A stretch of DNA of 17,538 nucleotides, taken from a virus (lineage: Duplodnaviria > Heunggongvirae > Uroviricota > Caudoviricetes). Location of the stretch: the IMG/VR virus record IMGVR_UViG_2690316152_000010, one strand, 5' to 3'. The position numbers were made by a program, and so were the translations under genes. Numbering within the stretch: the first letter of the stretch is position 1; the number at the start of each line of letters is the position of its first letter. The notes under the pieces were generated by a model. That model did no database searches and was not told where the DNA came from. It saw only the letters and a program-made list of their open reading frames with translations. Below, in pieces: positions 1,903 to 17,538 of the stretch.

Positions 1903-3087
1903 ATGAGTGAAACTCGTTTTCATGGTGCCCGTGTTACGGAAAATACCGACCTGGTAACAGCGATTAACGATGTTGATTCCAGCGTTATCGGTATCGTGGC
2001 AACGGCGGATGATGCGGACGCGAAGCTGTTCCCGCTGAACAAGCCCACACTGCTGACCCGCGTCAATGACGTGCTGGGAAAATGCGGGACAACGGGGACG
2101 CTTTATCGTGCGCTTAAGGCCATCGCAGACCAGGTGAGCACAAAGGTGATCGTCGTTCGCGTGGCTGAACACAAAGAAGAAGACGGAAAGACGCAGGATC
2201 AACTGGTTATCGGTGGTTCTGAATCTGACGGCAGCTATACGGGGATGTATGCGCTGCTTGTTGCAGAGCAGGATGAAAGCATCGGATACCGTCCGCGTAT
2301 TCTGGCCGCGCCGGAGCTGGACACGGAGGCGGTGACAAAATCCCTGTGCGTGATTGCGGGTAAACTGCGCGCGTTTGTGTATGCCTCATGTCACGGCTGT
2401 AACACGATGGCTGAGGCGATTACCTACCGCCAGAAATTCAACGAACGTGAGGTGATGCTCTTATGGCCGGACTTCATCGCCTACAACCCGAAAAGTGGCA
2501 AAAACGAAACGTTCCCCGCGCCTGCCTATGCGTGCGGCCTTCGTGCGTACATTGACCATGAGCAGGGATGGCACAAATCACTGTCCAACGTTCCGGTTAA
2601 AAATGTGCTGGGGATGTCCAGGCATGTGTTCTGGTCGTTGCAGGCCGAAGACAGCGATGCCAATAGCCTCAACAACAAAGAAATCACGACCATTATTCGT
2701 CGCAACGGGTTCCGCTTCTGGGGCAACCGCACACCGGAAACGAACGCCTACATCTTTGAGGTGTATACCCGAACCGCACAGGTGCTGGCTGATTCAATTG
2801 CGGAAGCGCAGTTTGAAACCATCGACAGTCCACTGACGCCTGCGAACGTGAAAGATGTTATCAGTGCCATCAGGGCAAAACTGGATTCACTGGTTACTGC
2901 CGGGAAACTGATTGGGGCGTCGTGCTGGTATGACGTGGTGGATAACGGCACCACGAATTTACGTCAGGGGCGCGTGCGTATTCGCTACAAATATACGCCT
3001 GTTCCCCCGCTGGAAGACATGGAGCTTTACCAGTCGTTTACTGATGAATTCTTTGGTCCCGCATTTGCGGTGCTGGGAGGTGCCTGA
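1903..3087 (+). CDS. FI: Contractile tail sheath protein (P2 gpFI family)
   Basis: 394 aa, the size of P2 FI. Sits immediately upstream of the tube gene, with an AAGGGG Shine-Dalgarno before the ATG and a stop that overlaps the FII start (TGATG). Confidence 0.9.
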   Translation: MSETRFHGARVTENTDLVTAINDVDSSVIGIVATADDADAKLFPLNKPTLLTRVNDVLGKCGTTGTLYRALKAIADQVSTKVIVVRVAEHKEEDGKTQDQLVIGGSESDGSYTGMYALLVAEQDESIGYRPRILAAPELDTEAVTKSLCVIAGKLRAFVYASCHGCNTMAEAITYRQKFNEREVMLLWPDFIAYNPKSGKNETFPAPAYACGLRAYIDHEQGWHKSLSNVPVKNVLGMSRHVFWSLQAEDSDANSLNNKEITTIIRRNGFRFWGNRTPETNAYIFEVYTRTAQVLADSIAEAQFETIDSPLTPANVKDVISAIRAKLDSLVTAGKLIGASCWYDVVDNGTTNLRQGRVRIRYKYTPVPPLEDMELYQSFTDEFFGPAFAVLGGA

Positions 3088-3599
3088 TGGCTGTACCAAA
3101 ACATCTTCGCTTTTTTACGCTGTTTGTGGATGGTGAAAACGAAGTGGGTAAGGTGACGTCCGTCACGCCGCCCAAACTGACGCGCAAAACCGACAGCTAT
3201 CGTGGTGGTGGCATGATGGGGGCGGTAAGTATTGATCTCGGTCTGGACGACTCCGCGCTTGATGCGAGTTTTGTTATGGGGGGAGCTGTTCGTGCGCTGT
3301 TCCTTAAATATGGCGGCACGATTGACGGCACGCTGCTGCGTTTTGCGGGTGAATACTACACCGATGCAGAAAGCGATCTGTATGAAATCGAGATGCGCGG
3401 GCGTGTGACGGAAATTGATATGGGGGAGGCCAAACAGGGCGAAGCCACATCACACACTTACGCTGTCAAAAACACCTACTACAAGCTGAGCGTTAACGAT
3501 CGCCCGCTGTTGGAAATCGACCTGTTGAACCACATCTACCGGAAGGACGGCAAGGACATTGTGCCTGACCGCATTCGTTCCGCGCTTGGGCTTGGCTGA
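3087..3599 (+). CDS. FII: Tail tube protein (P2 gpFII family)
   Basis: 170 aa. Start overlaps the sheath stop. Position between sheath and the E/T chaperone and tape-measure genes matches the conserved sheath-tube-chaperone-tape measure order. Confidence 0.9.
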   Translation: MAVPKHLRFFTLFVDGENEVGKVTSVTPPKLTRKTDSYRGGGMMGAVSIDLGLDDSALDASFVMGGAVRALFLKYGGTIDGTLLRFAGEYYTDAESDLYEIEMRGRVTEIDMGEAKQGEATSHTYAVKNTYYKLSVNDRPLLEIDLLNHIYRKDGKDIVPDRIRSALGLG

Positions 3600-3654
3600 T
3601 AAGTAATATGCAGGCGGCGCAGTGCGTCGCCTCTGACTGAAAAGGAGACAACTG

Positions 3655-4029
3655 ATGAAAGATATCGATACTGAAACCCGGAATAACACCGTAGCGGATG
3701 ATGTGACGGCAGGTGAGGATATGGCTGTCGAACGTGGTGTAAAACTTTCCCGGCCAATTGAGCGTGGTGGCGAAAAAATCACATATGTGGAGATCACCGG
3801 GGCTATTGAGCAGGCGGGATCCCTGCGTGGTCTGTCGCTGTCTGATGTGCTGAATCTGAAAGCGGATACCATGTTCACGCTGTTGCCTCGCGTGACCTCG
3901 CCACGACTGGATGAAGTGATGATTAAAAAAATGTCGTCACGCGATTTTATTCGGTTGTGCGCTGTGGCTGTAAATTTTATGAGCGAGCCAGACTCTGGCG
4001 CGAAGAGCGTGCAGGAGACGGCAGCGTAA
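3655..4029 (+). CDS. E: Tail assembly chaperone E (P2 gpE family)
   Basis: Small acidic ORF directly upstream of the tape-measure gene, with an AAGGAG Shine-Dalgarno 8 nt before the ATG. A second frame stays open beyond its stop (see E'). Confidence 0.75.
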   Translation: MKDIDTETRNNTVADDVTAGEDMAVERGVKLSRPIERGGEKITYVEITGAIEQAGSLRGLSLSDVLNLKADTMFTLLPRVTSPRLDEVMIKKMSSRDFIRLCAVAVNFMSEPDSGAKSVQETAA

Positions 4030-4193
4030 TCACCCTGGTGTGCTTTGAGCACATCGAAGATCTGGTGGCGGATATTGCCGCCATTTTTAACTGGTCGCCC
4101 GCCGAAATCTTCATGATGACGCCCGGCGAAGTGGTTAGCTGGCGCGAGCGGGCGGCACTTCGCAGCGGGAATGCAGACAATGAAGACTCTTGA
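3655..4193 (+). CDS. E': Predicted E' (E+E') product made by a programmed -1 frameshift from E
   Basis: The -1 frame relative to E is open from 3927 to the TGA at 4191-4193 and has no credible start of its own. The heptamer A_AAT_TTT at 3972-3978 fits the X_XXY_YYZ slippery pattern in the E frame. The E' end overlaps the T start. Exact shift site is unverified. Confidence 0.45.
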
Positions 4194-6987
4194 TATCCGG
4201 GTCGCTTTCAGCGCCGTTGACAGGCTGACCCGGCCTGCCGAAAACGCCCGCCGCCTGATGGGGCAGTTTGGTGACTCCATCCAGCGAACGCAGGGGGCGA
4301 TCAAAAATCTCGAGCGTCAGGCGCGATCATTTGAGCGCGCCCGCGACGCTGTCAGTAAAGCGGATGCGGGTATCGTGAAAGCACGACGCCAGCTTAACGC
4401 CCTTAATCAGTTACAACGCACGGGTACAGTGCTCAGCGAAAAACAACAAAAGCTGATGCAGCAGTTAAGCACCCGGCTTGAACGCCTGAATGAATCGCGC
4501 ACACGGGAAATTCAGAAAATGCGGGAGCTTGGCGGAGAGCTGAAACGCCACGGCATTTCCCTGACAGGCAGCGATAACACCATCCAGCAGGCCATCAGAC
4601 GCACCGAACAGTACAACAACCAGCTTGAACGCGAACGGCAGGCGCTTGCGCGTGTAACGCGGGCGCGTGAGCGGTATTCGCGCGCGCAGGAAACCGCGGG
4701 AAAACTGAAAACAGGTGGTGCGCTGGCAATTGGTGCGGCAGCGGCGGGCGGCTATGCTGCCGGGCGTTTTTTGCAGCCTGCGATCGGGTTCGGCAAAGAG
4801 ATGTCCCGCGTTCAGGCACTGACGCGAATCGACAAAAACAGCCCGCAGTTTAAGGCGCTGCGTGAGCAGGCGTTAAAACTTGGCTCTGAAACACAGTTTA
4901 CTGCGAGTGATGCCGCCAGTGGGCAGAGCTTTCTGGCAATGGCTGGTTTTACTCCGCAGGCCATTCAGGCCGCATTGCCCGGTGTTCTTAATATGGCGCT
5001 GGCAGGTGGCGTCGAACTCGGCGAGACGGCGGATATAGGCTCCAATATCCTCACACAGTTCAACCTGACAGCCGATCAAATGGACCGGGTTGGCGATACG
5101 CTGACAGCGGCATTCACCCGGACCAATACTGATTTACGCGCGCTGGGCGAAACCATGAAGTATACCGGTCCGGTTGCCGCAAAACTTGGTATCAGTCTTG
5201 AAGAAGCGGCGGCCATGGCCGGGATGCTTGCCAATAATGGTCTTCGTGGAAGCGATGCTGGTACGGCCATGCGCGCAAGTCTGTCCCGCCTTGCATCACC
5301 GCCAAAAGCTGCGGCTGATGCGCTGAAAGAGCTGGGGGTGTCAGTTGCTGACGCCAGAGGCAAAATGCGCCCGATGGAGGATGTGCTGCTTGATCTCTAT
5401 AAGGCGACACAAAAATACGGACAGGTGGACCAGGTTTCCTTCTTCAAGGACATCGCCGGAGAAGAGGCGTTCGTTGGTTTGCAGACGCTTGTTGCTGCGG
5501 CTGGTTCAGGAGAGCTGCAAAAACTGACCAGAGAATTGCAGGGGGCAAGGGGAGAGGCCGATCGCGTCGCAAAAGTAATGGCCGATAATCTTGATGGGGA
5601 CCTGAAAAATCTCGACAGCGCATGGGAAGGTCTTCGTATTCGCATCAGTGATCTGGTTGACGGTCCGCTGCGTTCTGTCACGCAGTGGCTCACGCGGGTG
5701 CTTGAAAAAATCACCTCGCTGGCGCAGGCCCATCCGGTACTGACGCGCCAGCTACTGATAGCAGGCGGTGCGTTGCTGGCAATGACTGCAACGGTTGGCT
5801 CGTTGTCGCTGGCTATTGGTGTGCTTGCTGGCCCGCTGGCAAAACTGCGTCTTGGCTTTTCCCTCCTGACCGGTTCAATGAATGCTGTCAGACTCCTGCC
5901 AGCACTATGGGGAATGGTGACGGGTTCCGTTTCGTTACTGGGGGGCGCTATCGGGGCGTTGTTCAGTCCGGTCGGTCTTATCGTGGCTGCGCTTGCCGGA
6001 GCTGCCGTTCTCATCTGGAAATACTGGGATCCCATCAGGGCATTTTTTGCCGGGGTGTTCAGCGGGATTATGGAAAGGCTGACCCCGTTGCGCGAAACCT
6101 TTGAACGGTTTGGTCCTGTTTTTGACGCAATCGGAAGCGGGATCAGCCAGGTGTTTAACTGGTTTAAATCGCTGTTGTCACCGATGGAGTCCAGCAAGGA
6201 AACGCTGGATAAATGTACCAGTGCTGGCGAGATATTCGGTAACGTTCTTGGCGGTGCGTTACAACTTGTTCTGACACCTGCAAAAATGCTACTGGATACG
6301 CTGGCGTGGATACTTGAAAAACTTGGCGTCCTTCCGGATGAAGCGGAAAGGGCGCGCAAGAAAATCGAAGACGCACAGCGTGCGGCCATTCTTCAGGACA
6401 AGGTTGCCTTACTTCAGGGGGACCTGGCGAAAATCAATCCGCCGAAGCCTGTGGAAAATGGCAATGGCACCGGAGGTGATAAACCCAAAGACAACAAACC
6501 GCTCACAGACAGCAATACCGGGACGCTGCGCAGACTCAGCAAAATTGCTGATAACACAGGTAAGCTGGTTGATGAGACGAAAAAACGCATTGGCCCCGGC
6601 GATATTGTCTTTAAGAACCTGCCCCGCGCACTTGCTGTTCGTGGGGAGTGGCAGGAGCGGAAGATTGCGCAGGTCAGTAAGCCTGCCCCCGCAATTAATA
6701 TCACACCCGTGGTTCCGGCTCCGCTGCCTCCGGCGCTGGTCCCTGTTGTTGCGGCCAGCTCCCGCCCGGTGGCGGAGGCCATACGATCGCCAGTGGCATC
6801 AGCTCCTGCAACTTCCCGTAACCGGGAGCCTGTTGCCTCCGGATTTGGCGGTGAAATTCATGTTCATCTGCATAACATTGTTACACAGAATCCCCGCGAA
6901 CTGGCGAAACTGGTCGGTGAAATGGTTAGGGCAGAAATGGAACGGCGCGCCCGTGCCGGGCGTGGCAGTTTTTACGATAAAGATTGA
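4171..6987 (+). CDS. T: Tail tape-measure protein (P2 gpT family)
   Basis: 938 aa. N-terminal charged, coiled-coil-like region (many R/E/Q/L runs), central glycine/alanine-rich hydrophobic segments, Pro/Ala/Val-rich C-terminal region. Located after E/E'. The true start may be the second ATG at 4180, which has GGGAA 8 nt upstream. Confidence 0.9.
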   Translation: MQTMKTLDIRVAFSAVDRLTRPAENARRLMGQFGDSIQRTQGAIKNLERQARSFERARDAVSKADAGIVKARRQLNALNQLQRTGTVLSEKQQKLMQQLSTRLERLNESRTREIQKMRELGGELKRHGISLTGSDNTIQQAIRRTEQYNNQLERERQALARVTRARERYSRAQETAGKLKTGGALAIGAAAAGGYAAGRFLQPAIGFGKEMSRVQALTRIDKNSPQFKALREQALKLGSETQFTASDAASGQSFLAMAGFTPQAIQAALPGVLNMALAGGVELGETADIGSNILTQFNLTADQMDRVGDTLTAAFTRTNTDLRALGETMKYTGPVAAKLGISLEEAAAMAGMLANNGLRGSDAGTAMRASLSRLASPPKAAADALKELGVSVADARGKMRPMEDVLLDLYKATQKYGQVDQVSFFKDIAGEEAFVGLQTLVAAAGSGELQKLTRELQGARGEADRVAKVMADNLDGDLKNLDSAWEGLRIRISDLVDGPLRSVTQWLTRVLEKITSLAQAHPVLTRQLLIAGGALLAMTATVGSLSLAIGVLAGPLAKLRLGFSLLTGSMNAVRLLPALWGMVTGSVSLLGGAIGALFSPVGLIVAALAGAAVLIWKYWDPIRAFFAGVFSGIMERLTPLRETFERFGPVFDAIGSGISQVFNWFKSLLSPMESSKETLDKCTSAGEIFGNVLGGALQLVLTPAKMLLDTLAWILEKLGVLPDEAERARKKIEDAQRAAILQDKVALLQGDLAKINPPKPVENGNGTGGDKPKDNKPLTDSNTGTLRRLSKIADNTGKLVDETKKRIGPGDIVFKNLPRALAVRGEWQERKIAQVSKPAPAINITPVVPAPLPPALVPVVAASSRPVAEAIRSPVASAPATSRNREPVASGFGGEIHVHLHNIVTQNPRELAKLVGEMVRAEMERRARAGRGSFYDKD

Positions 6988-6993
6988 GGAGTC

Positions 6994-7488
6994 ATGGCCA
7001 TGATGATGATCTACGGCATGTTTGTTTTTGAGCTGCGCACGCTGCCGCATCAGCAGTTACAGCAAAACAAAAGCTGGCGGCATGTGAAAAATGAACGCGT
7101 TAACCGTTCAGCAGGCTGGCAGTATATCGGCGCAGGTGATGATCGCATTGTGCTTTCCGGCGTGCTTTATCCTGAAATTACAGGTGGCGAAGTGTCGCTT
7201 TCGTTGCTGACCACGCAGGCATATACAGGACGCCCCTGGCCTCTGATTGATGGTGTCGGGCAGATTTACGGCATGTATGTACTGACTGAAACGAATACGA
7301 CCCGTTCCGAGTTTGATCGCTATGGTAAGGCGAAAAAGATAGAATTTTCACTGACTCTTGAACGCTGTGATGAGGATTTGCGGGAGCGCCTGCAATCCTC
7401 ATCGTTCAGCGATATGCTGTCCGGCTTCAAAGATAAAGTGACATCATCTCTTAACAGCGCGGCCAGCTCCGTTAAAGGGCTGTTTTGA
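6994..7488 (+). CDS. U: Tail protein U (P2 gpU family)
   Basis: 164 aa beginning MAMMMIYGMFVFELRTLPHQ. Immediately downstream of T, with a GAGGAG Shine-Dalgarno. Size and position match gpU. Confidence 0.8.
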   Translation: MAMMMIYGMFVFELRTLPHQQLQQNKSWRHVKNERVNRSAGWQYIGAGDDRIVLSGVLYPEITGGEVSLSLLTTQAYTGRPWPLIDGVGQIYGMYVLTETNTTRSEFDRYGKAKKIEFSLTLERCDEDLRERLQSSSFSDMLSGFKDKVTSSLNSAASSVKGLF

Positions 7489-7495
7489 TTAACGC

Positions 7496-7525
7496 AAAAC
7501 CGCTAATGGTCAGATTAGCGGTTTT
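7496..7525. terminator. Bidirectional rho-independent terminator hairpin between U and the invertase
   Basis: Perfect 12-bp inverted repeat AAAACCGCTAAT / ATTAGCGGTTTT (7496-7507 and 7514-7525) with a 6-nt loop. A/T runs on both sides give a U-tract in either orientation. Sits 8 nt after the U stop and overlaps the invertase stop codon. Confidence 0.5.
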
Positions 7526-8114
7526 CATTTTCCTGAGTCTGTCTGGTTGTTTCTTCAGCCTGTATATCGCCTACAGGGTGATAACGATAAATCGTCGATA
7601 TGCCGATGTCGTAAATGATCGCCAGTTGTTTCCTGTCATGACCGTTTTTAATCAGCCTCGCTATTTGCTCGTGTTGTTCTTTTGTCAACTTCGGGCGACG
7701 TCCGCCAATGCGTCCTTGTGCGCGTGCTGCTGCCAGCCCGGCCAGTGTACGCTCTACAATTAATTCACGTTCCATTTCGGCTAAAGCCCCCATGACGTGA
7801 AAAAAGAAACGCCCCATGGGTGTTGACGTGTCAATGCTGTCCGTCAGACTACGGAAATTAACACCTTTTTCCCGCAATTCCTCAATAAGCGTGATCAGGT
7901 GTTTCATACTTCTGCCCAGTCTGTCCAGCTTCCAGACAACCAGCGTATCTCCTTCTGATAGCGTTCTGAGCAGTTTTTTCAATCCCGGTCTGGTTGATTT
8001 CGTTCCGCTGATTTTATCTTCAAAAATCAGTTCACATCCTGCGCAGTTCAGTGCATTGCGTTGTAAATCCGTGTTCTGGTCGTTTGTTGACACACGAATA
8101 TAGCCAATTTGCAT
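7515..8114 (-). CDS. Site-specific DNA invertase, serine recombinase of the Hin/Gin/Cin/Pin family
   Basis: Product starts MQIGYIRVSTNDQNTDLQRNAL and contains VVWKLDRLGRSMKHL, SLTDSIDTSTPMGRFFFHVMGALAEMERELI.ERT.AGLAAARA.GR.GGR.PKLT and a C-terminal helix-turn-helix region, all hallmark blocks of this family including the catalytic serine. AAAGAGGA Shine-Dalgarno upstream of the ATG at 8114. The track's 242-aa ORF is an upstream extension. Confidence 0.9.
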   Translation of the reverse strand: MQIGYIRVSTNDQNTDLQRNALNCAGCELIFEDKISGTKSTRPGLKKLLRTLSEGDTLVVWKLDRLGRSMKHLITLIEELREKGVNFRSLTDSIDTSTPMGRFFFHVMGALAEMERELIVERTLAGLAAARAQGRIGGRRPKLTKEQHEQIARLIKNGHDRKQLAIIYDIGISTIYRYHPVGDIQAEETTRQTQENENR

Positions 8115-8168
8115 AAAAAACATCCTCTTTGTTTCGTGAAAAATACAGAGTTGGTATAGGTAGGGATA

Positions 8169-8194
8169 AAAACGAAAACGTTGGTTTGGGGGAA
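8169..8194 (+). promoter_or_regulatory. Candidate invertase crossover site s1 at the 5' edge of cassette A
   Basis: AAAACGAAAACG-TT-GGTTTGGGGGAA. The right half and about 60 bp downstream are shared by every cassette junction. The AAACN-NN-GGTTT core resembles gix/hix/cix-type sites. The 26-bp boundaries are inferred, not demonstrated. Confidence 0.4.
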
Positions 8195-8647
8195 GGCTCT
8201 GCATTGCCTGTTGGTGTACCGGTTCCGTGGCCCACCGCCACACCGCCAGAAGGCTGGTTAAAGTGCGACGGGCGCGCCTTTACAAAAGAACAATATCCTG
8301 TTCTGGCCAGAGCCTACCCGACCCTCCGTCTTCCCGATTTACGCGGTGAATTTATTCGTGGCTGGGATGACGGACGTGGTGTGGATGCCGGGCGACAATT
8401 ATTATCTTCACAGGGGGATGCAATAAGAAATATTGAGGGATTCGCAGATGGCGGGATCGGTATGTCTTTTGATGCAATCAGAGGGGCTTTTTACGATGCA
8501 GGAACACGATCAGCGAGAATGCCGAATAACACAACTACTATAGACAAAACCGATGACCTTGGATTCGACGCCTCTCGTGTCGTGCCAACAGCTAATGAAA
8601 ACCGTCCTCGTAATATTGCCTTTAATTATATCGTAAGGGCGGCATAA
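8183..8647 (+). CDS. Promoterless tail-fibre C-terminal cassette A (alternative receptor-binding domain, tail-collar type)
   Basis: Open frame with no ATG start, beginning at the shared junction (GLGEGSALPVGVPVPWPTATPPEGWLKCDGRAFTKEQYPVLARAYPTL...LPDLRGEFIRGWDDGR) and ending ...RPRNIAFNYIVRAA*. Same N-terminal block and same end motif as the C-terminus of H. Confidence 0.75.
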   Translation, partial: GLGEGSALPVGVPVPWPTATPPEGWLKCDGRAFTKEQYPVLARAYPTLRLPDLRGEFIRGWDDGRGVDAGRQLLSSQGDAIRNIEGFADGGIGMSFDAIRGAFYDAGTRSARMPNNTTTIDKTDDLGFDASRVVPTANENRPRNIAFNYIVRAA

Positions 8648-8666
8648 AAACGTTGGTTTGGGGGAA
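8641..8666 (+). promoter_or_regulatory. Candidate invertase crossover site s2 at the 5' edge of cassette B
   Basis: GGCATAAAAACG-TT-GGTTTGGGGGAA, same core and downstream conserved block as s1 and s3. It overlaps the cassette A stop codon. Confidence 0.4.
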
Positions 8667-9131
8667 GGCTCTGCATTGCCTGTTGGTGTACCGGTTCCAT
8701 GGCCCACCGCCACACCGCCAGCAGGCTGGTTACAGTGCAACGGAGCTACGTTCACCAAAGAACAATATCCTGTTCTGGCCAGAGTCTACCCGACCCTCAG
8801 TCTTCCCGATTTACGCGGTGAGTTTATCCGTGGATGGGACGACGGGCGCAAGATTGACGAGGGGCGTAAGTTGCTTTCATGGCAGAAAGGTACACTGGTC
8901 GGCGGTCATGACGATAACGATTCTGCGCTTGATATCTCGTACATGAGTAACGGAAATAATATTGACTATGGCGGCGATAAGGTGTTTGCGGGGAATTACC
9001 GTAGCGATTATTTGTGGTACGCAATACTGGGTGGAACAAACAGTCGCGCAAAAGCCGAATTAAACGGAGCATTCTTTAACATAACCCGCCCCCGCAATAT
9101 CGCGTTTAACTATATCGTGAGGGCGGCGTGA
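8655..9131 (+). CDS. Promoterless tail-fibre C-terminal cassette B (alternative receptor-binding domain, tail-collar type)
   Basis: Starts with the shared junction block (GEGSALPVGVPVPWPTATPPAGWLQCNGATFTKEQYPVLARVYPTLSLPDLRGEFIRGWDDGRKIDEGRKLL), then a distinct distal domain, then ...RPRNIAFNYIVRAA*. No ATG start; the 'M' in the ORF track is a TTG. Confidence 0.75.
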   Translation, partial: GLGEGSALPVGVPVPWPTATPPAGWLQCNGATFTKEQYPVLARVYPTLSLPDLRGEFIRGWDDGRKIDEGRKLLSWQKGTLVGGHDDNDSALDISYMSNGNNIDYGGDKVFAGNYRSDYLWYAILGGTNSRAKAELNGAFFNITRPRNIAFNYIVRAA

Positions 9132-9137
9132 TACCGT

Positions 9138-9285
9138 TCAACTGGCAAGTGCCAGTGGCGCTTCCGGCCAGCTGATTTCAGGTGCCGTGCTGATATCCAG
9201 TGCGTTCAGCTCGTCGATATAATCCAGCACGGCGTTCAGTTTTGCCGTTTCTTCTGGTGTCAGACTGCGACCAGCACGCAGTTAA
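9138..9285 (-). pseudogene. 3' remnant of a tail-fibre assembly (tfa) gene: last ~48 codons only
   Basis: Exact reverse complement of the 3' end of the intact tfa (16430-16577). On its own strand the frame is closed by an in-frame TAA exactly where the homology ends, with no start codon. Confidence 0.7.
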
Positions 9286-9347
9286 CGCCGGGTGGGGCTG
9301 CCTGCAGATATAACGATATTATTCCGGCCGACCACTGCCTGCATGAT

Positions 9348-10826
9348 GTGCAGGATATGAGTACGCTGAATCATCCGAAGGCAGACCTGAGCAAAGGGCA
9401 GTACGGCTGTGTCGGCCAGGGCTTACATATTGCCAAAAAACTGCTCCCGTATATCCCGAATAACGCGGGGATCCTGCTGGTACCATGCTGTCGTGGTGGT
9501 TCGGCATTCACTCAGGGCGCGGAGGGAACATTCAGTACGACCACGGGGGCCAGCCAGGATTCGGCGCGCTGGGGTGTGGGTAAACCGTTATATCAGGACC
9601 TGATTGCGCGCACTAAAGCTGCATTACAGAAGAACCCGAAAAATGTGTTGCTGGCGGTGTGCTGGATGCAGGGCGAATTTGACATGAGCGCTGCCACCTA
9701 CGCACAGCAACCGGACCTGTTCACGGCCATGCTGAAGCAGTTCCGTACTGACCTTTCCGGATTTAACGCGCAGTGCCATGGCGGCAGTGCTGCAGTTGTA
9801 CCGTGGATTTGTGGCGACACGACGTATTACTGGAAAAACACATACGGCACACAGTATGACTCCGTCTACGGCGCGTACAAAAACAGGGAGAGCGACAACG
9901 TTTTCTTTGTGCCGTTCATGACCGACGGTAACGGCAACAACACGCCCACCAACTTACCGGCAGAAGACCCGGATATTGCTGATGCAGGTTATTACGGCGC
10001 GCAATCCCGTAGTAATGGTAATTGGGTATCGTCAAATCGTCCGACACATTTCAGTTCATGGGCGCGCAGGGGCATTATTTCGGATCGCCTGGCAACCGCT
10101 ATTCTGAACGCAGTTGGTCGAACCAGCGCCTTCATCAGCGGTACCGCACCGGAGATTAAACCCTCGCCCGGCGGCGACACTCCATCGGGGCCGTCTGATG
10201 GTGACACATCCGTTCGTACAGTCTCCCTGCTGCCGACAGCCGGAGAGGCTGCTGCGCAGGGCTGGACCATCACCGGCGGCAGTGTTGCGCTGGAAGATGG
10301 TGTGTTTAAGGTTACCAAGCAGAGCAATAAAACCTGGTCCCTGATGCATCCGGTGGATGACGCAGTCTCCCTGCTGACACGGGGTGGCAGACTGAGCTGT
10401 AAGTTTCGACTGTCAGGCGCACTGACCAACAACCAGTTCGGTCTGGGAATTTATCTGTATACCGATGTAGCGTTACCTGACGTCGTGGCGATGACCGGGA
10501 CTGGTAACCCGTTCCTGATGTCGTTCTTCACCCAGACCACAGACGGCAAACTGAATCTGATGCATCACAAGAAAGCCGGAAACACAAAGTTGGGCGAGTT
10601 CGGGAATTACAGTAACGACTGGCAGACGCTGGAGCTGGTGTTCACCGCCGGCAGTGCCACGGTTACTCCGAAACTGAATGGAGTGGCTGGCCCGGCATTC
10701 CAGGTCATAAAAGACAGTCTGACACTGGGGCTGAATGCGCTGACGTTAACTGATATCACTAAAAATGCCGCGTACGGCGTCGATATCGGCAGCCTGGTGC
10801 TGGAAATCAATAATCCCGCAGCATAA
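9348..10826 (+). CDS. Sialate O-acetylesterase-like protein (NanS/YjhS family, SASA/SGNH-hydrolase type); apparently 5'-truncated
   Basis: Contains NDIIP..HC.HDVQDM, GQ.LHIAKKLLPYIPNNAGILLVPCCRGGSAFT, CWMQGEFDM, CGDTTYYWK, AEDPD and FSSWARRGIISDR blocks that I recall from prophage and chromosomal 9-O-acetyl-sialate esterases. The reading frame is open upstream back to the repeat boundary at 9285 but has no ATG there. The expected N-terminal GQSN catalytic block is absent. Confidence 0.65.
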   Translation: MQDMSTLNHPKADLSKGQYGCVGQGLHIAKKLLPYIPNNAGILLVPCCRGGSAFTQGAEGTFSTTTGASQDSARWGVGKPLYQDLIARTKAALQKNPKNVLLAVCWMQGEFDMSAATYAQQPDLFTAMLKQFRTDLSGFNAQCHGGSAAVVPWICGDTTYYWKNTYGTQYDSVYGAYKNRESDNVFFVPFMTDGNGNNTPTNLPAEDPDIADAGYYGAQSRSNGNWVSSNRPTHFSSWARRGIISDRLATAILNAVGRTSAFISGTAPEIKPSPGGDTPSGPSDGDTSVRTVSLLPTAGEAAAQGWTITGGSVALEDGVFKVTKQSNKTWSLMHPVDDAVSLLTRGGRLSCKFRLSGALTNNQFGLGIYLYTDVALPDVVAMTGTGNPFLMSFFTQTTDGKLNLMHHKKAGNTKLGEFGNYSNDWQTLELVFTAGSATVTPKLNGVAGPAFQVIKDSLTLGLNALTLTDITKNAAYGVDIGSLVLEINNPAA

Positions 10827-10849
10827 GGAAGAGCAGGAGAGCAAAACAG

Positions 10850-11317
10850 ATGCTTAAGACAAACAGTCTGCGAGAGTCCATGCTTCATGGGTGTCGGTGG
10901 TGCCAGGCTAATCCCGAGAAATTCACCATTTTCGTGGAGAGCGGCAACATTGAAACGACCGGAGAAGCGCCCTCGTTTGTTTACCGCTATCAGATGGTGA
11001 TGTTTGTCATGGATTACGCCGGAGAGCTGGACGACCTCACGCTGCCGCTGCTGGCGTGGTTATCCGAAAATCAGCCACAGTTGTTGCTCAATCCGGAGCG
11101 TAATCAGGACATCAAATTTTCTGCCGTTATCAATGACGATGACAGCGCCGATCTCCTGTTTACGCTCCCCCTGCGGGAACGCGTTCGCATCACGCGCAAC
11201 AGTCAGGGCACACCGCAGGCAGAACACCTGCCGGAGCCAAAACCCCGTCTGCCCTCTTCCGAAGGCGACTGGTCGCATGTATTCCAGGATGTGACGTGGG
11301 GTGAAAGCGATGGATAA
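10850..11317 (+). CDS. R: Tail completion protein R (P2 gpR family)
   Basis: 155 aa, starting MLKTNSLRESM, with ...PLLAWLSENQP... in the middle, matching gpR in size and pattern. AGGAG Shine-Dalgarno upstream. Directly precedes the S/V/W/J/I/H block. Confidence 0.75.
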   Translation: MLKTNSLRESMLHGCRWCQANPEKFTIFVESGNIETTGEAPSFVYRYQMVMFVMDYAGELDDLTLPLLAWLSENQPQLLLNPERNQDIKFSAVINDDDSADLLFTLPLRERVRITRNSQGTPQAEHLPEPKPRLPSSEGDWSHVFQDVTWGESDG

Positions 11318-11945
11318 GGCATTCACCAGCGTGGATGAAACCTTTGAGGCTATCCGCGACAGCCTGAATCAGCAGGCCATCAATAACATCGCCAGAAAGC
11401 TGGCACAGGATTTACGTCGCGCCCAGCAGGCACGTATCCGATCACAAAAAGCGCCGGACGGGACCGAATGGACACCACGCAGACGCCGCGTAACCCGGAT
11501 ACAGGAGCGCATTCGCTTTATCTGGAATAACGAAGCACGCACGCTGAAAAACTGGCATCACGACACGGGGAAATACGGGCGAACCATTACCGGGTGGGAT
11601 GAGGATAAAAACAATATCCGCACGTTTTACCGGGATGACATCGACCGTTTTCTGGAAATACGCACCCGGCGCATCAACCAGGACAGCACAAAGCGCGTCC
11701 CCATGTTCGTAAAACTGCGCACCGCCCGCTACCTGAAAGCCCGTGCAGATGCCTCCGGTGTGACGGTGGGTTACAGCGGCGTGGCCGCACGTATTGCACG
11801 CGTTCATCAGTTCGGTGAGCGCGATCAGGTTGCGCCGGGCATTTTCACCGATTACCCGGTACGTGAGCTGTTGGGTATCAGCCAGGCAGATGAGCGCCTG
11901 ATTTATAACACGGTGCTGGGCCGGATTGCGGAGGCTGTACGGTGA
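11310..11945 (+). CDS. S: Virion morphogenesis / tail completion protein S (P2 gpS family)
   Basis: Position between R and V. Contains QKAPDGT.W.PRR and VHQFG motifs that I associate with gpS-type proteins. Overlaps the R stop. The alternative GTG start at 11301 is possible. Confidence 0.65.
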   Translation: MDKAFTSVDETFEAIRDSLNQQAINNIARKLAQDLRRAQQARIRSQKAPDGTEWTPRRRRVTRIQERIRFIWNNEARTLKNWHHDTGKYGRTITGWDEDKNNIRTFYRDDIDRFLEIRTRRINQDSTKRVPMFVKLRTARYLKARADASGVTVGYSGVAARIARVHQFGERDQVAPGIFTDYPVRELLGISQADERLIYNTVLGRIAEAVR

Positions 11946-12523
11946 GCGCAGAACTCATGCGACTGCTGAGCAACATCATCCGCACCGGGATCATCTCTGA
12001 AGTTGATGAGAAGTCCTGGCGCGTGCGCGTTCGCAGCGGCGAACTGGAAACAGGCTGGTTGCGCTGGAACACCACGCGCGCGGGAGCCTTCAATGTGTGG
12101 CTGCCGCCATCACCAGGCGAACAGGTGGTAATTGCCTGCATTGGCGGCAACCCGGAAACCGCCATGATAATTGGCAGCCTGTGGAGTGATGCCAGTCCGG
12201 CCCCCGGCAAAAGCCTGAAAGAAATCGTGGTCAGCGCGCCGGATGGCGCGGTGTTCCGCTACGACGCAGACGCTGGCGCACTGAGCGCCAGCGGCATGAA
12301 AACAGCCACCCTGCAGGCATCCGTCAGCGTGACACTGGATACGCCCGTCGTGGAATGCACAAACCTTCTGAGAACAGCGACGCTTGACGTCACAAAAGGG
12401 GGAAAGATGAGCGGCAATATCACGCACAGCGGCGGCAACTTCACCTCAAACGGCATCACAGTGCATACGCATAAACACGGTGGTGTGAAAGGCGGCAGCG
12501 ATTCGACAGGAGGCCCGCAGTGA
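11942..12523 (+). CDS. V: Baseplate spike/assembly protein V (P2 gpV family)
   Basis: N-terminal IRTGIISEVD...GWLRW..TRAG....W.PP.PGEQVV and C-terminal TLDTPVVECTN...KGGKMSGNITHSGGNFTSNGITVHTHKH are characteristic gpV blocks. GTG start overlaps the S stop, with GGAGG upstream. Confidence 0.9.
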   Translation: MSAELMRLLSNIIRTGIISEVDEKSWRVRVRSGELETGWLRWNTTRAGAFNVWLPPSPGEQVVIACIGGNPETAMIIGSLWSDASPAPGKSLKEIVVSAPDGAVFRYDADAGALSASGMKTATLQASVSVTLDTPVVECTNLLRTATLDVTKGGKMSGNITHSGGNFTSNGITVHTHKHGGVKGGSDSTGGPQ

Positions 12524-12870
12524 CAACCCGCTACACAGGAATGAATCCGGACGGGACGGGAAACCTGAATGATATGGAGCACCTGAAACAGTCAGCCAGG
12601 GACATCCTGACCACCCCGCTGGCCAGCCGGGTTATGCGACGGGAATATGGCAGCCTTGTACCTGATTTGATTGACGAACCCATGAATAACACCACGCGTC
12701 TGCAATGCATGAGTGCTGCCGTGATTGCGCTGACACGATGGGAACCCCGCATTGCCCTGGACGCCATCGACGTTGTCTGGAAAGCGGGAGGCCGCGCCGG
12801 GGTGACGCTGTCGGGCACTGTCATGCAGACCATGCAGAATGTTGAGTTAACCATCACGCTGAGGGAGTAA
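12520..12870 (+). CDS. W: Baseplate wedge protein W (P2 gpW / T4 gp25-like lysozyme fold family)
   Basis: MTTRYTGMN...DLEHL.QS..DIL.TP..SRVMRR.YGS start and 116-aa size match gpW. GTG start overlaps the V stop, with AGGAGG 7 nt upstream. Confidence 0.9.
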   Translation: MTTRYTGMNPDGTGNLNDMEHLKQSARDILTTPLASRVMRREYGSLVPDLIDEPMNNTTRLQCMSAAVIALTRWEPRIALDAIDVVWKAGGRAGVTLSGTVMQTMQNVELTITLRE

Positions 12871-12873
12871 ATC

Positions 12874-13770
12874 ATGCCTGCTGTTGACCTTTCCCAGTTA
12901 CCGGAACCCGCCATCATCGCGAAGCCTGATTTTGAGGCAATTCTGGCTGACACAAAGGCCATGATGATTGCGTCCTATCCTGCCGAACAGCGTGAAGCCG
13001 TCTCCGCCGCGCTGGAGCTGGAATCGGAACCCCTGAACGTTATCGCCCAGACAACAGCGTTTCGTGAAATGCTGTTACGCCAGCGGGTCAATGAGGGTGC
13101 ACGCGCCTGCATGTTAAGCCACAGCGCCGGGACAGACCTGGACAACCTCGCGGGCAATATGAACACAAAGCGCCTGGTTATCACTCCGGCAACGGATACC
13201 ACCGACGCGGTGATGGAAAGCGACACATCGCTGAGACTGCGGGCGCAACGGGCGTATGACGGTCTGAGTGTTGCTGGCCCGTCAGGCGCATACGAGTATT
13301 TTGCACGCAGCGCCAGCGGTCTGGTACGCGACGCGCGAGCCATCAGCCCGTCTCCGGCCAACGTGACGGTTTCCATCCTGTCCACTGAAGGCGACGGCAC
13401 AGCAACGGAGGCGTTGCTTAATACCGTTCGCGCCGTTCTGAATGCAGAGGATACCCGCCCGGTGGCCGACCGCCTGACCGTACAGAGCGCCAGAATCGTG
13501 ACATGGCGGCTGAATGCAAAACTGTACTTTTACCCCGGCCCGGAATCCGAACCTATTCTGGCCGCGGCTGAATCGTCGTTCAGGAAGTGGCTGGCTGAGC
13601 AGGGGCTTATCGGTCAGGACGTGGCGTTGTCCGCCATTGCTGCCGCACTGCATGTGCACGGTGTGCAACGCGTGGAGATAATCGAACCCACACAGAATAT
13701 GGCCATCAGCGACATACAGGCGGCGCGCTGTGAGTCATTCACCATCAGCGAAGGTGGACGCAATGAGTAA
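12874..13770 (+). CDS. J: Baseplate protein J (P2 gpJ family)
   Basis: 298 aa, in the position and of the size expected for gpJ between W and I. GAGGGAG Shine-Dalgarno upstream. Confidence 0.85.
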   Translation: MPAVDLSQLPEPAIIAKPDFEAILADTKAMMIASYPAEQREAVSAALELESEPLNVIAQTTAFREMLLRQRVNEGARACMLSHSAGTDLDNLAGNMNTKRLVITPATDTTDAVMESDTSLRLRAQRAYDGLSVAGPSGAYEYFARSASGLVRDARAISPSPANVTVSILSTEGDGTATEALLNTVRAVLNAEDTRPVADRLTVQSARIVTWRLNAKLYFYPGPESEPILAAAESSFRKWLAEQGLIGQDVALSAIAAALHVHGVQRVEIIEPTQNMAISDIQAARCESFTISEGGRNE

Positions 13771-14371
13771 TTCGTTGTTACCACCATCAGCCAGCAATTT
13801 CATGCGTTGTGCCGAAGCCGTCGGAACACGCATTACAGACATTCCGGTAGACCTCAACACGCTGTGGTCGCCGGACACCTGCCCGGTGCATCTGCTGCCT
13901 TATCTCGCCTGGGCGTTTTCCGTTGACCGCTGGGATCGCAACTGGCCGGAAGAGACAAAGCGACAGGTGATTCGTGATGCATGGCTGATACACCGACACA
14001 AAGGGACCATCAGCGCACTGCGAAGAGCCGTGGAGCCTCTCGGCTACCTGATTGAAGTAAAGGAGTGGTGGCAACTCAACGAGGAGCCGGGAACATTTCG
14101 CATTGTTGTCGGAGTACTTGATCAGGGCATCACCGATGAAATGTATCAGGAACTTGAGCGCCTTATTGCGGATGCAAAACCAGTAAGTCGCCATCTGACG
14201 GGGCTGGCGATCAGCCTGAGTGTGAACGGAAAGATTTTCGTTGGTACGGGATGCTATCACGGCGATGCCCTGACGGTTTATCCCTACACCCCGGAGTCCA
14301 TTATTGTCGAAGGGGATTATTTCCCTGCCCCGGCCATTCATTTAATTGATAATCTGAGAGTAAACGCATGA
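13763..14371 (+). CDS. I: Baseplate/tail protein I (P2 gpI family)
   Basis: MSNSLLPPSAS... with LW.PDTCP..LLPYLAWAFSVDRWD..WPEETKR.VIRDA, GTFR..VGVL..GITDEMYQELERLIADAKP.SRHL. Start taken at the ATG at 13763 (AAGGTGGA Shine-Dalgarno), overlapping the J stop, rather than the longer track ORF from 13730. Confidence 0.85.
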   Translation: MSNSLLPPSASNFMRCAEAVGTRITDIPVDLNTLWSPDTCPVHLLPYLAWAFSVDRWDRNWPEETKRQVIRDAWLIHRHKGTISALRRAVEPLGYLIEVKEWWQLNEEPGTFRIVVGVLDQGITDEMYQELERLIADAKPVSRHLTGLAISLSVNGKIFVGTGCYHGDALTVYPYTPESIIVEGDYFPAPAIHLIDNLRVNA

Positions 14372-15963
14372 CAGTGAAATACTACGCCATTCTGACTAAT
14401 CAGGGCGCGGCACGACTGGCTAACGCGACGATGCTCGGCAGTAAGCTGAATCTGACGCGAATGGCCGTTGGTGATGCAAATGGTGTGTTACCAACACCAG
14501 ACCCTGCACAAACAAAACTGATTAACCAGAAACGCATTGCACCGCTGAATCTTCTGAGTGTTGACCCTAACAATCAGAGCCAGATTATTGCGGAGCAAAT
14601 CATCCCTGAAAGCGAGGGTGGATTCTGGATCCGTGAGATTGGTCTTTATGATGATAAAGGTGTACTCATTGCGGTGGCAAACTGCCCGGAAACGTACAAA
14701 CCGCAGTTGCAGGAAGGCAGTGGACGCACCCAGACTATCCGCATGATTCTGGTTGTCACGAACACCGAAGCCATCACGCTGAAAATCGACCCGTCTGTGG
14801 TTCTGGCAACCCGCAAATATGTGGATGATAAAATCTCAAAGCACGAGCAGTCACGACGTCACCCGGACGCCTCGCTGACCGCAAAAGGCTTTGTTCAACT
14901 TAGCAGTGCCACGGACAGTCAATCAGAAACTGAGGCTGCCACGCCGAAGGCTGTGAAAATCGCGTATGATCTGGCCTGGGGAAAATACACAGCCCAGGAT
15001 GCAACAACGACCCGTAAAGGGATCGTACAACTGAGCAGTGCCACCAACAGCACCTCTGAAACGCTGGCCGCCACACCAAAAGCCGTCAAGGCGGCATACG
15101 ACCTTGCAGCCGGCAAGGCCCCCGTCAGCCACACTCACCCATGGAGTCAGATAACGGGAGTGCCTGCTGCCTCGCTGACGGCAAAAGGCACCGTACAACT
15201 GAGCAGTGCCATCAACAGCACGTCTGAAATACTGGCCGCCACACCGAAAGCGGTCAAGGATGCATACGATCTGGCAAACGGAAAACAACCGGCAGATGCC
15301 ACGCTCACTGCTCTGGCAGGACTTGCCACTGCAGCAGATCGGTTGCCTTATTTTACCGGAGCAGACCGCGCAGCGCTGGCAACCCTTACAGCTATTGGTC
15401 GCGCTATTATCGCTAAGGGCAGTATAAAAGATGTCCTCAATTACCTTGGTTTGGGGGAAGGCTCTGCATTGCCTGTTGGTGTACCGGTTCCGTGGCCCAC
15501 CGCCACACCGCCAGAAGGCTGGTTAAAGTGCGACGGGCGCGCCTTTACAAAAGAACAATATCCTGTTCTGGCCAGAGCCTACCCGACCCTCAGTCTTCCC
15601 GATTTACGCGGTGAGTTTATCCGTGGATGGGACGACGGGCGCAAAGTTGATACAGGACGTAAGTTGCTGTCCGCACAAGGGGCAACGCTGTTAAGAACAG
15701 CAATGCTGGATTATTATAACCAGGACACTACGGGAACCTCGGGGATAGTCGGCATGGGATTCAACAATGAAGATTCCATTACAGACCTTCGTGAGGGCAG
15801 CTTTAAAATGCCGGACGGGACAACATTCAGCGATCCTGTCGTGGCAATGTCAGACAATGGTATGCAGGCTACTATTCTGACCTCTATCAGAAGCGGGTAT
15901 GCGAAGGGTATCACTGTCAGACCCCGTAGCATTGCACTTAATTACATTGTGAGGGCAGTTTAA
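14368..15963 (+). CDS. H: Tail fibre protein H (P2 gpH family): constant N-terminal shaft (to ~15447) fused to the currently expressed variable C-terminal domain
   Basis: Strong gpH blocks: GGFWIREIGLYDD.G.LIAVAN, HEQSRRHPDASLTAKGFVQLSSAT, repeated SETLAATPKAVKAAYDLA units, KQP.DATLTALAGLATAADR.PYFTG. From the shared junction (LNYLGLGEGSALPVGVPVPWP...) onward it carries a third variant of the tail-collar C-terminal domain, ending ...RPRSIALNYIVRAV*. Confidence 0.9.
   Translation: MTVKYYAILTNQGAARLANATMLGSKLNLTRMAVGDANGVLPTPDPAQTKLINQKRIAPLNLLSVDPNNQSQIIAEQIIPESEGGFWIREIGLYDDKGVLIAVANCPETYKPQLQEGSGRTQTIRMILVVTNTEAITLKIDPSVVLATRKYVDDKISKHEQSRRHPDASLTAKGFVQLSSATDSQSETEAATPKAVKIAYDLAWGKYTAQDATTTRKGIVQLSSATNSTSETLAATPKAVKAAYDLAAGKAPVSHTHPWSQITGVPAASLTAKGTVQLSSAINSTSEILAATPKAVKDAYDLANGKQPADATLTALAGLATAADRLPYFTGADRAALATLTAIGRAIIAKGSIKDVLNYLGLGEGSALPVGVPVPWPTATPPEGWLKCDGRAFTKEQYPVLARAYPTLSLPDLRGEFIRGWDDGRKVDTGRKLLSAQGATLLRTAMLDYYNQDTTGTSGIVGMGFNNEDSITDLREGSFKMPDGTTFSDPVVAMSDNGMQATILTSIRSGYAKGITVRPRSIALNYIVRAV
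14869..15276 (+). repeat. Three in-frame tandem repeat units inside H
   Basis: Units at about 14869-14976, 15013-15108 and 15169-15276 encode near-identical (A)SLTAKG.VQLSSAT.S.SE.LAATPKAVK.AYDLA segments. The strong nucleotide similarity also produces the shadow ORFs on the opposite strand at 14919-15288. Confidence 0.8.
15434..15459 (+). promoter_or_regulatory. Candidate invertase crossover site s3 at the constant/variable junction of H
   Basis: TCCTCAATTACC-TT-GGTTTGGGGGAA. The left half is H-constant sequence; the right half and the following ~60 bp are identical to the cassette junctions at s1 and s2. Confidence 0.45.
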
Positions 15964-16577
15964 TGAGTAACACTGCAGTTCTGGATGAAAACGGTATCGC
16001 CACTGTAGCGGGCGATATCACTGTATATCACTATGACGAGGAAACCCGGGAATACACCTCATCCTCTGTGGAGTATCTCGCCCTTGGGGTGGGTACTCCG
16101 GCACATTCGTGCGCCGATGCACCGCCGGAGGCAATTTCGGGTTACGTGGTTTGCCGGACTGCCACGCTGAACGGGTGGGAGCATGTGCCTGATCACCGCG
16201 GCGAGACGGTATACAGCACGGAGAACGGTAACCCTGTTCTGATTACCCAACCGGGTGATTACCCGGCGGACACCACCACAAAACAGCCAGCCACGCCATG
16301 GGATACCTGGAACGGTGAGGCGTGGGTAACCGATACTGAACGGCAGCGAGCCGCAGAACTGGAGGTTGCCAGACAGCAACGCCAGCAACGGGTGAAACAG
16401 GCGATGGCGTCCGTCGATCTTATCAACCTCAAACTGCGTGCTGGTCGCAGTCTGACACCAGAAGAAACGGCAAAACTGAACGCCGTGCTGGATTATATCG
16501 ACGAGCTGAACGCACTGGATATCAGCACGGCACCTGAAATCAGCTGGCCGGAAGCGCCACTGGCACTTGCCAGTTGA
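15963..16577 (+). CDS. Tail fibre assembly chaperone (Tfa / P2 gpG / Mu U-like)
   Basis: 204 aa, directly after H with a TAATG stop/start overlap. C-terminal ...LTPEE.AKLNAVLDYIDELNALDISTAPEISWPE.P is typical of Tfa-family chaperones. Confidence 0.8.
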   Translation: MSNTAVLDENGIATVAGDITVYHYDEETREYTSSSVEYLALGVGTPAHSCADAPPEAISGYVVCRTATLNGWEHVPDHRGETVYSTENGNPVLITQPGDYPADTTTKQPATPWDTWNGEAWVTDTERQRAAELEVARQQRQQRVKQAMASVDLINLKLRAGRSLTPEETAKLNAVLDYIDELNALDISTAPEISWPEAPLALAS

Positions 16578-16583
16578 ACGGTA

Positions 16584-17060
16584 TCACGCCGCCCTCACGA
16601 TATAGTTAAACGCGATATTGCGGGGGCGGGTTATGTTAAAGAATGCTCCGTTTAATTCGGCTTTTGCGCGACTGTTTGTTCCACCCAGTATTGCGTACCA
16701 CAAATAATCGCTACGGTAATTCCCCGCAAACACCTTATCGCCGCCATAGTCAATATTATTTCCGTTACTCATGTACGAGATATCAAGCGCAGAATCGTTA
16801 TCGTCATGACCGCCGACCAGTGTACCTTTCTGCCATGAAAGCAACTTACGCCCCTCGTCAATCTTGCGCCCGTCGTCCCATCCACGGATAAACTCACCGC
16901 GTAAATCGGGAAGACTGAGGGTCGGGTAGACTCTGGCCAGAACAGGATATTGTTCTTTGGTGAACGTAGCTCCGTTGCACTGTAACCAGCCTGCTGGCGG
17001 TGTGGCGGTGGGCCATGGAACCGGTACACCAACAGGCAATGCAGAGCCTTCCCCCAAACC
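16584..17060 (-). CDS. Inverted copy of tail-fibre cassette B (promoterless variable C-terminal domain)
   Basis: Encoded 157-aa sequence is identical to 8658-9131. Converges on the tfa stop, 6 nt away. Confidence 0.75.
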   Translation of the reverse strand, partial: GLGEGSALPVGVPVPWPTATPPAGWLQCNGATFTKEQYPVLARVYPTLSLPDLRGEFIRGWDDGRKIDEGRKLLSWQKGTLVGGHDDNDSALDISYMSNGNNIDYGGDKVFAGNYRSDYLWYAILGGTNSRAKAELNGAFFNITRPRNIAFNYIVRAA

Positions 17061-17074
17061 AACGTTTTTATGCC
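17049..17074 (-). promoter_or_regulatory. Candidate invertase crossover site s4 (inverted copy of s2)
   Basis: Mirror image of 8641-8666 within the inverted repeat. Confidence 0.4.
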
Positions 17075-17532
17075 GCCCTTACGATATAATTAAAGGCAAT
17101 ATTACGAGGACGGTTTTCATTAGCTGTTGGCACGACACGAGAGGCGTCGAATCCAAGGTCATCGGTTTTGTCTATAGTAGTTGTGTTATTCGGCATTCTC
17201 GCTGATCGTGTTCCTGCATCGTAAAAAGCCCCTCTGATTGCATCAAAAGACATACCGATCCCGCCATCTGCGAATCCCTCAATATTTCTTATTGCATCCC
17301 CCTGTGAAGATAATAATTGTCGCCCGGCATCCACACCACGTCCGTCATCCCAGCCACGAATAAATTCACCGCGTAAATCGGGAAGACGGAGGGTCGGGTA
17401 GGCTCTGGCCAGAACAGGATATTGTTCTTTTGTAAAGGCGCGCCCGTCGCACTTTAACCAGCCTTCTGGCGGTGTGGCGGTGGGCCACGGAACCGGTACA
17501 CCAACAGGCAATGCAGAGCCTTCCCCCAAACC
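17068..17532 (-). CDS. Inverted copy of tail-fibre cassette A (promoterless variable C-terminal domain)
   Basis: Encoded sequence is identical to cassette A (8183-8647). Confidence 0.75.
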   Translation of the reverse strand, partial: GLGEGSALPVGVPVPWPTATPPEGWLKCDGRAFTKEQYPVLARAYPTLRLPDLRGEFIRGWDDGRGVDAGRQLLSSQGDAIRNIEGFADGGIGMSFDAIRGAFYDAGTRSARMPNNTTTIDKTDDLGFDASRVVPTANENRPRNIAFNYIVRAA

Positions 17533-17538
17533 AACGTT
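17521..17538 (-). promoter_or_regulatory. Candidate invertase crossover site s5 (inverted copy of s1), truncated by the window end
   Basis: Mirror image of 8177-8194. The outer half-site lies beyond the window. Confidence 0.3.

Follow-up and report, generated by a model that had tools for sequence, protein, structure and literature searches.

The region 7515-9131 is very probably the invertase-proximal end of a three-site tail-fibre switch carried by a P88-like (Peduoviridae) E. coli prophage, with the five crossover sites of the window (the whole stretch of 17,538 nucleotides analysed) arising from a fold-back of the contig. The switch consists of a Gin-family serine invertase, the tail-fibre gene H, divided into a constant part (Hc) and a variable C-terminus (Hv), the chaperone gene G, and two silent tail-fibre C-termini, cassettes A and B. 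This three-tip inversion switch is real, functional-looking, ordinary and already described.

The backbone surrounding the switch is that of P88-like phages of the P2 family (Peduoviridae, Xuanwuvirus/Gemsvirus), with the arrangement D(-) / FI FII E E' T U(+) / invertase(-) / fibre and baseplate(-). From D to the invertase, nucleotide identity with P88, 500465-2, P884B11 and the Citrobacter phage Shae_phiSM amounts to 92-95%. After the esterase gene come R, S, V, W, J and I, then H (14368-15963) and G.

Table 1. Features of the window, by position.
Feature	Position	Strand	Remarks
D	ORF 636-1877; gene as called ends ~1745	-
FI, FII, E, T, U	1903-7488	+
Hairpin, likely bidirectional terminator	7496..7525	.	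12-bp stem, T-run; between convergent U (stop 7488) and invertase (stop 7515)
Gin-family serine DNA invertase	7515..8114	-	199 aa; Pfam and Gin-structure matches
Putative Fis-dependent enhancer	8030..8093	-	in the 5'-terminal part of the invertase gene; alignment to Mu gin
Cassette A crossover site	8169..8194	+	beside the invertase; AAAACGAAAACG-TT-GGTTTGGGGGAA, core 8181-8182
Cassette A, silent tail-fibre C-terminus	8183..8647	+	collar domain, variable insert, then RPRNIAFNYIVRAA
Cassette B crossover site	8641..8666	+	GGCATAAAAACG-TT-GGTTTGGGGGAA, core 8653-8654
Cassette B, silent tail-fibre C-terminus	8655..9131	+	Pfam Collar domain
Copy of the last 146 nt of G	9138..9283	-	left arm of the inverted duplication ends here
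Fold-back junction	9279..9284	.	G-internal to esterase-internal sequence; CAGTT common to both sides
SASA/DUF6645 esterase gene, 5'-truncated	9284..10826 (ORF 9348-10826)	+
Hc, constant part of tail-fibre gene H	14368..15447	+	360 residues
Crossover site inside H	15434..15459	+	TCCTCAATTACC-TT-GGTTTGGGGGAA, core 15446-15447
Hv, variable C-terminus now fused to H	15448..15963	+
G, Caudo_TAP tail-fibre assembly chaperone	15963..16577	+	sole chaperone of the module, always paired with Hv
Cassette B' and crossover site	16584..17074	-	core AA 17061-17062; identical to 8641-9131
Cassette A' and crossover site	17068..17538	-	core AA 17533-17534; identical to 8177-8647

Fold-back of the contig and the number of sites

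A repeat search of the window identifies positions 8177-9283 as the 100% reverse complement of 16432-17538, over 1107 nt. Because this inverted repeat is perfect, cassettes A and B and the pair of inverted cassettes on the downstream side of G represent one and the same DNA. By BLAST, the window corresponds to positions 7103-16384 of the E. coli DA33135 prophage, followed by the reverse complement of its positions 15278-23505. The change to the reverse complement falls inside G, and the alignment resumes from inside the esterase, running back via H, G, B and A. DA33135, a complete genome, contains the same prophage, 98-99% identical to the window, with a single three-site locus in the order ogr, D(-), FI-U(+), invertase(-), A(+), B(+), G(-), H(-), I, J, W, V, S, R(-), esterase(-), lysis and head genes. 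In the reference prophage the esterase gene is intact, encoding 626 aa.

In the complete genomes, A and B occupy the interval from the invertase to G, in the orientation opposite to that of H; a direct orientation of A and B relative to H occurs only across the fold-back junction of the draft contig. The window ends where the contig ends, 4 nt past the core of A', cutting the fifth site. Five site copies are thus present in the window, two of them exact fold-back copies and one of these cut by the contig end. A sequence-only reading of the window had proposed five junction sites, three direct and two inverted; this count takes one locus twice, the complete genomes having three sites. A five-site architecture is probably not part of the switch; the fold-back is better explained as an artefact of the assembly or the sample, or as a private rearrangement.

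The main alternative is that the inverted duplication is real, which appears unlikely but deserves to be kept in view. Two inverted copies of A, B and the 3' part of G, perhaps also of the invertase, would then flank the baseplate and fibre operon and provide five usable sites. The invertase could in that case flip the whole operon of ~9.3 kb (A with A' or B with B') besides the tips, adding an on/off layer to the host-range switch. The 5-nt overlap at the junction (CAGTT) is more in keeping with illegitimate recombination or template switching than with a graph misjoin driven by repeats. Since it is too short for the k-mer overlap of a graph assembler, the junction may exist in the real DNA of the isolate, which weakens the reading as a pure artefact. 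Duplication of a cassette also occurs naturally, as in OZ040015, where cassette A is present twice together with four sites. Several observations nevertheless oppose a real duplication. None of 5,426 complete E. coli genomes contains the junction 9283/9284, and its 34-mer has no match in three contig collections, covering viruses, genomes and metagenomes. In its exact form, the truncated esterase protein occurs in no independent assembly, only in the NCBI contig; likewise, the exact H protein is found on one record only, contig CYBG01000002.1 of draft assembly GCA_001285145.1. Moreover, the second arm stops at the end of the draft contig, right at a crossover site, the esterase is truncated, and the lysis and head genes expected next are missing from the contig. 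A single three-site locus, read twice, remains the preferred interpretation. Formation of the junction by the invertase at a pseudo-site was also considered and rejected, as neither side of the junction is gix-like when judged by eye.

Crossover sites and isomers of the native locus

The crossover sites are 26-bp imperfect dyads of 12-2-12 organization with a TT core, and the right half-site GGTTTGGGGGAA is common to all three. The left half of the cassette B site overlaps the 3' end and stop codon of cassette A. The site within H is inverted relative to those of B' and A', so that the three sites show the 26-bp dyads, the common 2-bp core and the inverted placement around a segment that characterize Din systems. 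They resemble Mu gixR (TTCCTGTAAACC-GA-GGTTTTGGATAA), and the distance between site and invertase gene is the same as for gixR.

In complete genomes the native order is V W J I Hc / Hv G / B'(-) / A'(-) / invertase, and the convergent FI-U operon comes next. Comparison of complete-genome prophages that share the same invertase protein, and whose I and J are identical or nearly so, distinguishes four isomers of the locus: Hc-Hv G/B'/A'; Hc-B/G' Hv'/A'; Hc-A B/G' Hv'; and Hc-A/Hv G/B'. DA33135 represents the first (Hc-Hv, S0), AVS0542 the second (Hc-B, S1) and AVS0225 the third (Hc-A-B, S2), with OZ040015 resembling the fourth (S3-like); M1/5 carries a two-cassette version of the locus. The proposal of three alternative tips, more than the two-state G or C segment offers, is thereby borne out, with three cassettes and three sites in the native locus.

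The isomers differ in which of the three left flanks precedes which cassette, the flanks being permuted, and every cassette retains all its own head polymorphisms. The exchange is consequently bounded between base -1 and base +46 of the core, which fits cleavage by the invertase at or near the 2-bp core. Inversion of the segment with exchange at the core is thus supported by comparison among relatives of the window's isolate, rather than by the isolate itself.

The same cassette heads, homologous over ~220-240 bp at 83-90% identity, would be long enough for RecA, and inverted repeats of 215 bp at 92% identity have been described by Goldberg et al. (PMC4272514). Inversion by RecA-mediated homologous recombination between the heads, with a dispensable invertase, is nonetheless very unlikely: the natural isomers contain no chimeric cassette head, every exchange mapping within the bounds of -1 and +46 of the core; an intact invertase is 99% conserved together with the spacer and sites; and the high flipping rates within single colonies (PMC4272514) fit an invertase. 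Inversion by the invertase at the core sites is therefore favoured.

The invertase gene and its putative enhancer

The assignment of the gene at 7515-8114 to the Hin/Gin/Cin/Pin family of serine invertases is confirmed by its domains, its structural matches and its active site. Pfam Resolvase (PF00239) is matched at 2.4e-51 and HTH_7 (PF02796) at 1.4e-12, and the Mu Gin structures 4m6f/3uj3 match residues 2-186 with an E of about 1e-91 (2.5e-91). With 199 aa, an N-terminal catalytic domain and a C-terminal HTH, the protein has the build of a small serine recombinase (~190 aa). The catalytic Ser9 is intact within the motif YIRVSTNDQ. Residues K46, K47 and R50, numbered one below Hin, correspond to the invertase-specific basic residues of helix B in Hin, K47, K/R48 and K/R51 (PMC3798978). 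The ORF listed as reaching 8243 represents a GTG extension upstream of the start of the 199-aa protein.

Within the 5' end of the gene, two 15-mers of the form G-N13-C are located at gene nt 22-36 and 71-85, 49 bp apart, with ATTTA and CAATG between them. Both occupy positions equivalent to those in Mu gin and lie ~90-150 bp from the nearest crossover site. The features compared are those of the Hin enhancer (PMC3798978), and a Fis-dependent enhancer may accordingly be placed here on the strength of the alignment. The pair appears conserved with Mu gin, which coding constraint alone could account for.

The silent cassettes

The two cassettes had been described as lacking a start codon, opening with the sequence of the constant/variable junction of H, and sharing an end motif; each of these points stands. 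Neither A nor B has a credible start, the annotated TTG of A (8129) lying opposite the start and leader region of the invertase. Alignment of the three copies (H junction, A and B) gives 46 identical nt from the TT core onward in all three, within homologous heads of ~220-240 nt. The encoded proteins have ~77 N-terminal residues in common, forming the collar, followed by ~80 divergent residues and the common end RPRxIAxNYIVRA. Both cassettes contain the Pfam Collar domain, and the collar head is similar to the T4 gp37 tip and to a short-tail-fibre structure. The repeats of H resemble Mu S. An NCBIfam search assigns a specific name neither to H and G nor to the cassettes.

After exchange at the core, both A and B are in frame with Hc, and other genomes contain the predicted Hc-A and Hc-B junctions, each as a single match over the full length. 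That A and B are independent small genes rather than silent cassettes, in line with their RefSeq entries as 'phage tail protein' (172 and 151 aa), is hardly credible: both contain in-frame TTG codons and are annotated by gene callers, but the TTG of A is placed opposite the invertase start as noted, the same cassettes are joined in frame to Hc in other genomes, and the cassette heads begin exactly at the crossover site.

Proposed switch mechanism and the chaperone gene

By homology to Gin and Hin, the invertase, aided by host Fis at the enhancer in its own gene, would cut the 2-bp core and rotate the DNA half-sites. The four isomers would then arise from inversion of [Hv G B'], 1,616 bp long, or of [Hv G B' A'], 2,088 bp long, and would set Hv, B or A in frame behind the 360 constant residues of H. 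Progeny phage would accordingly carry one of three receptor-binding tips.

The three tips are served by one chaperone gene, G, which accompanies only one of them and, when Hc is joined to A or B, faces away from the late operon. Expression of G in the flipped states by read-through from the FI-U operon was considered and rejected; such read-through is unlikely, given that U and the invertase gene are separated by a strong hairpin that has a T-run. The single chaperone counts against the three-tip model, which does not account for the folding of the A and B fibres.

Comparison with known invertible systems

In Mu (G/Gin), P1 (C/Cin) and e14 (P/Pin), as in the window, a 26-bp site is located just upstream of the invertase gene and the tail-fibre C-terminus is exchanged. 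These three systems have two sites, two states and a chaperone for each variable part (S-U, S'-U'), whereas the present locus has three sites, four states and a single chaperone paired with one tip. The classical two-state segment, Sv'-U'/U-S, is found in P88 and 500465-2 on the same backbone.

The sequence-only reading had likened the system to the Min system of p15B or to a shufflon. The likeness to Min is apt in kind: in p15B (P1-related) and here, a serine invertase of the Din family shuffles tail-fibre C-termini via more than two crossover sites, the native locus having three sites and four isomers. Min itself has six sites and many more isomers, so that the present locus is the smaller. 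Invertases and tail-fibre genes of the p15B Min type have been reported in P1-like plasmids (PMC6906374). The R64-type shufflon, in which multiple inversions determine the one C-terminus, out of several, that a surface adhesin carries, is an analogy only. It employs the tyrosine recombinase Rci, acting on sfx sites, and the pilus adhesin pilV; a shufflon in the strict sense is ruled out, the enzyme of the window being a serine recombinase.

The closest known system is in enteropathogenic E. coli (EPEC) E2348/69, where a P2-like prophage, located at 1.89 Mb by the coordinates of Table S1, carries three inverted repeats homologous to one another and three alternative C-termini (Goldberg et al. 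2014, PMC4272514). Four variants coexist there in single-colony cultures, as established by sequencing and PCR (PMC4272514). The window's system does not go beyond known ones, the three-site, four-variant architecture having already been demonstrated with an invertase gene 99.2% identical to that of the window. The two loci are alike in the P88-like backbone, the gene order, the three sites, the one G and the three C-termini. They have an identical spacer between invertase and site, the same TT core and the same cassette-side half-site. The inversions span ~2.0 and 1.6 kb in E2348/69 and 2.09 and 1.62 kb here. The cassettes of E2348/69 represent other alleles, with collar heads ~75% identical and unrelated variable inserts.

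Annotation and distribution of the module

Beyond annotation the locus has little significance. RefSeq treats the cassettes as free-standing genes. It also carries a warning that draft assemblies can show invertible loci duplicated and in misleading orientation. Among E. coli strains the three-tip, four-state switch is a common one: 254 of the 5,426 complete genomes, including a P1-like phage-plasmid, contain 80% or more of the module. The module moves as a unit among P2-like prophages, P1-like plasmids and a further tail cluster: Hv-G-B', together with another cassette and a cin/min-like recombinase, is found on a 92.5-kb P1-like plasmid and also in a tail cluster of D-V-W-J-I-H order beside cps genes.

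Fold-back junction and the locus in OZ040015

The segment at 8177-9283 is repeated in inverted orientation at 16432-17538, a perfect duplication of 1107 nt that reaches the end of draft contig CYBG01000002.1. At the fold-back junction (9283/9284), where sequence internal to the chaperone gene G meets sequence internal to the esterase gene, 5 nt are common to both sides. A 68-aa ORF at 9138-9344(-) is a product of this junction and is spurious. In the complete genome NZ_OZ040015.1, four crossover sites are present between positions 4900 and 7060 (locus L002). This locus carries two copies of the silent tail-fibre cassette A in inverted orientation, retains only a 45-nt head remnant of the second silent cassette, B, and lacks the last 30 nt of G. 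Therefore, either cassettes do get duplicated and deleted, or this locus is likewise a mixed-population assembly.

Tail fibre, chaperone and esterase genes

The three alternative fibre tips are accompanied by a single Caudo_TAP chaperone gene (15963-16577; also in the related loci L003, L006, L010 and L013). This gene always adjoins one particular tip, and cassettes A and B are without a chaperone gene. Within the fibre gene H, the units of about 100 nt match Pfam Phage_fiber_2 repeats. The homologous esterase gene is called yjhS, a 9-O-acetyl-N-acetylneuraminic acid deacetylase, in annotated Stx1a-phage records. The 5′ region of the window's esterase gene is mosaic, with 98% identity to esterase genes of O55:H7 and O157:H7 genomes, and the first ~30 nt diverge from DA33135.

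Coordinates of features in the window and, for the esterase, in the reference prophage
Feature	Window	L001 (DA33135)	Context
Hairpin, 12-bp stem, flanking A/T runs	7496-7525		between convergent U and invertase genes
Small GpE-family ORF	4038-4193		overlaps T start, downstream of E (3655-4029)
SASA/DUF6645 esterase	9284-10826	21990-23870	between lysis genes and gpR of P2-like prophage
~100-nt unit, three tandem-like copies, 66-85% identical	14884-15284		inside H

The reversed FI-U operon and the prophage end

Compared with the gene order of P2, the FI-FII-E-E'-T-U operon (1903-7488), flanked by 636-1877 and 7515-8114, is reversed, and it is convergent with the invertase gene; the hairpin separating them is probably a bidirectional terminator. 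P88-like phages (L001, L004, L005 and L013) share the reversal as a fixed trait; it did not arise by rearrangement in the window. The GpE-family ORF and E are arranged as is usual for the E/E' tail-chaperone frameshift of P2. The prophage end carries a toxin gene of the hok/gef type and a late activator of the ogr/delta zinc-finger type (1-141 and 333-593), and the window starts exactly at the boundary of the hok gene.
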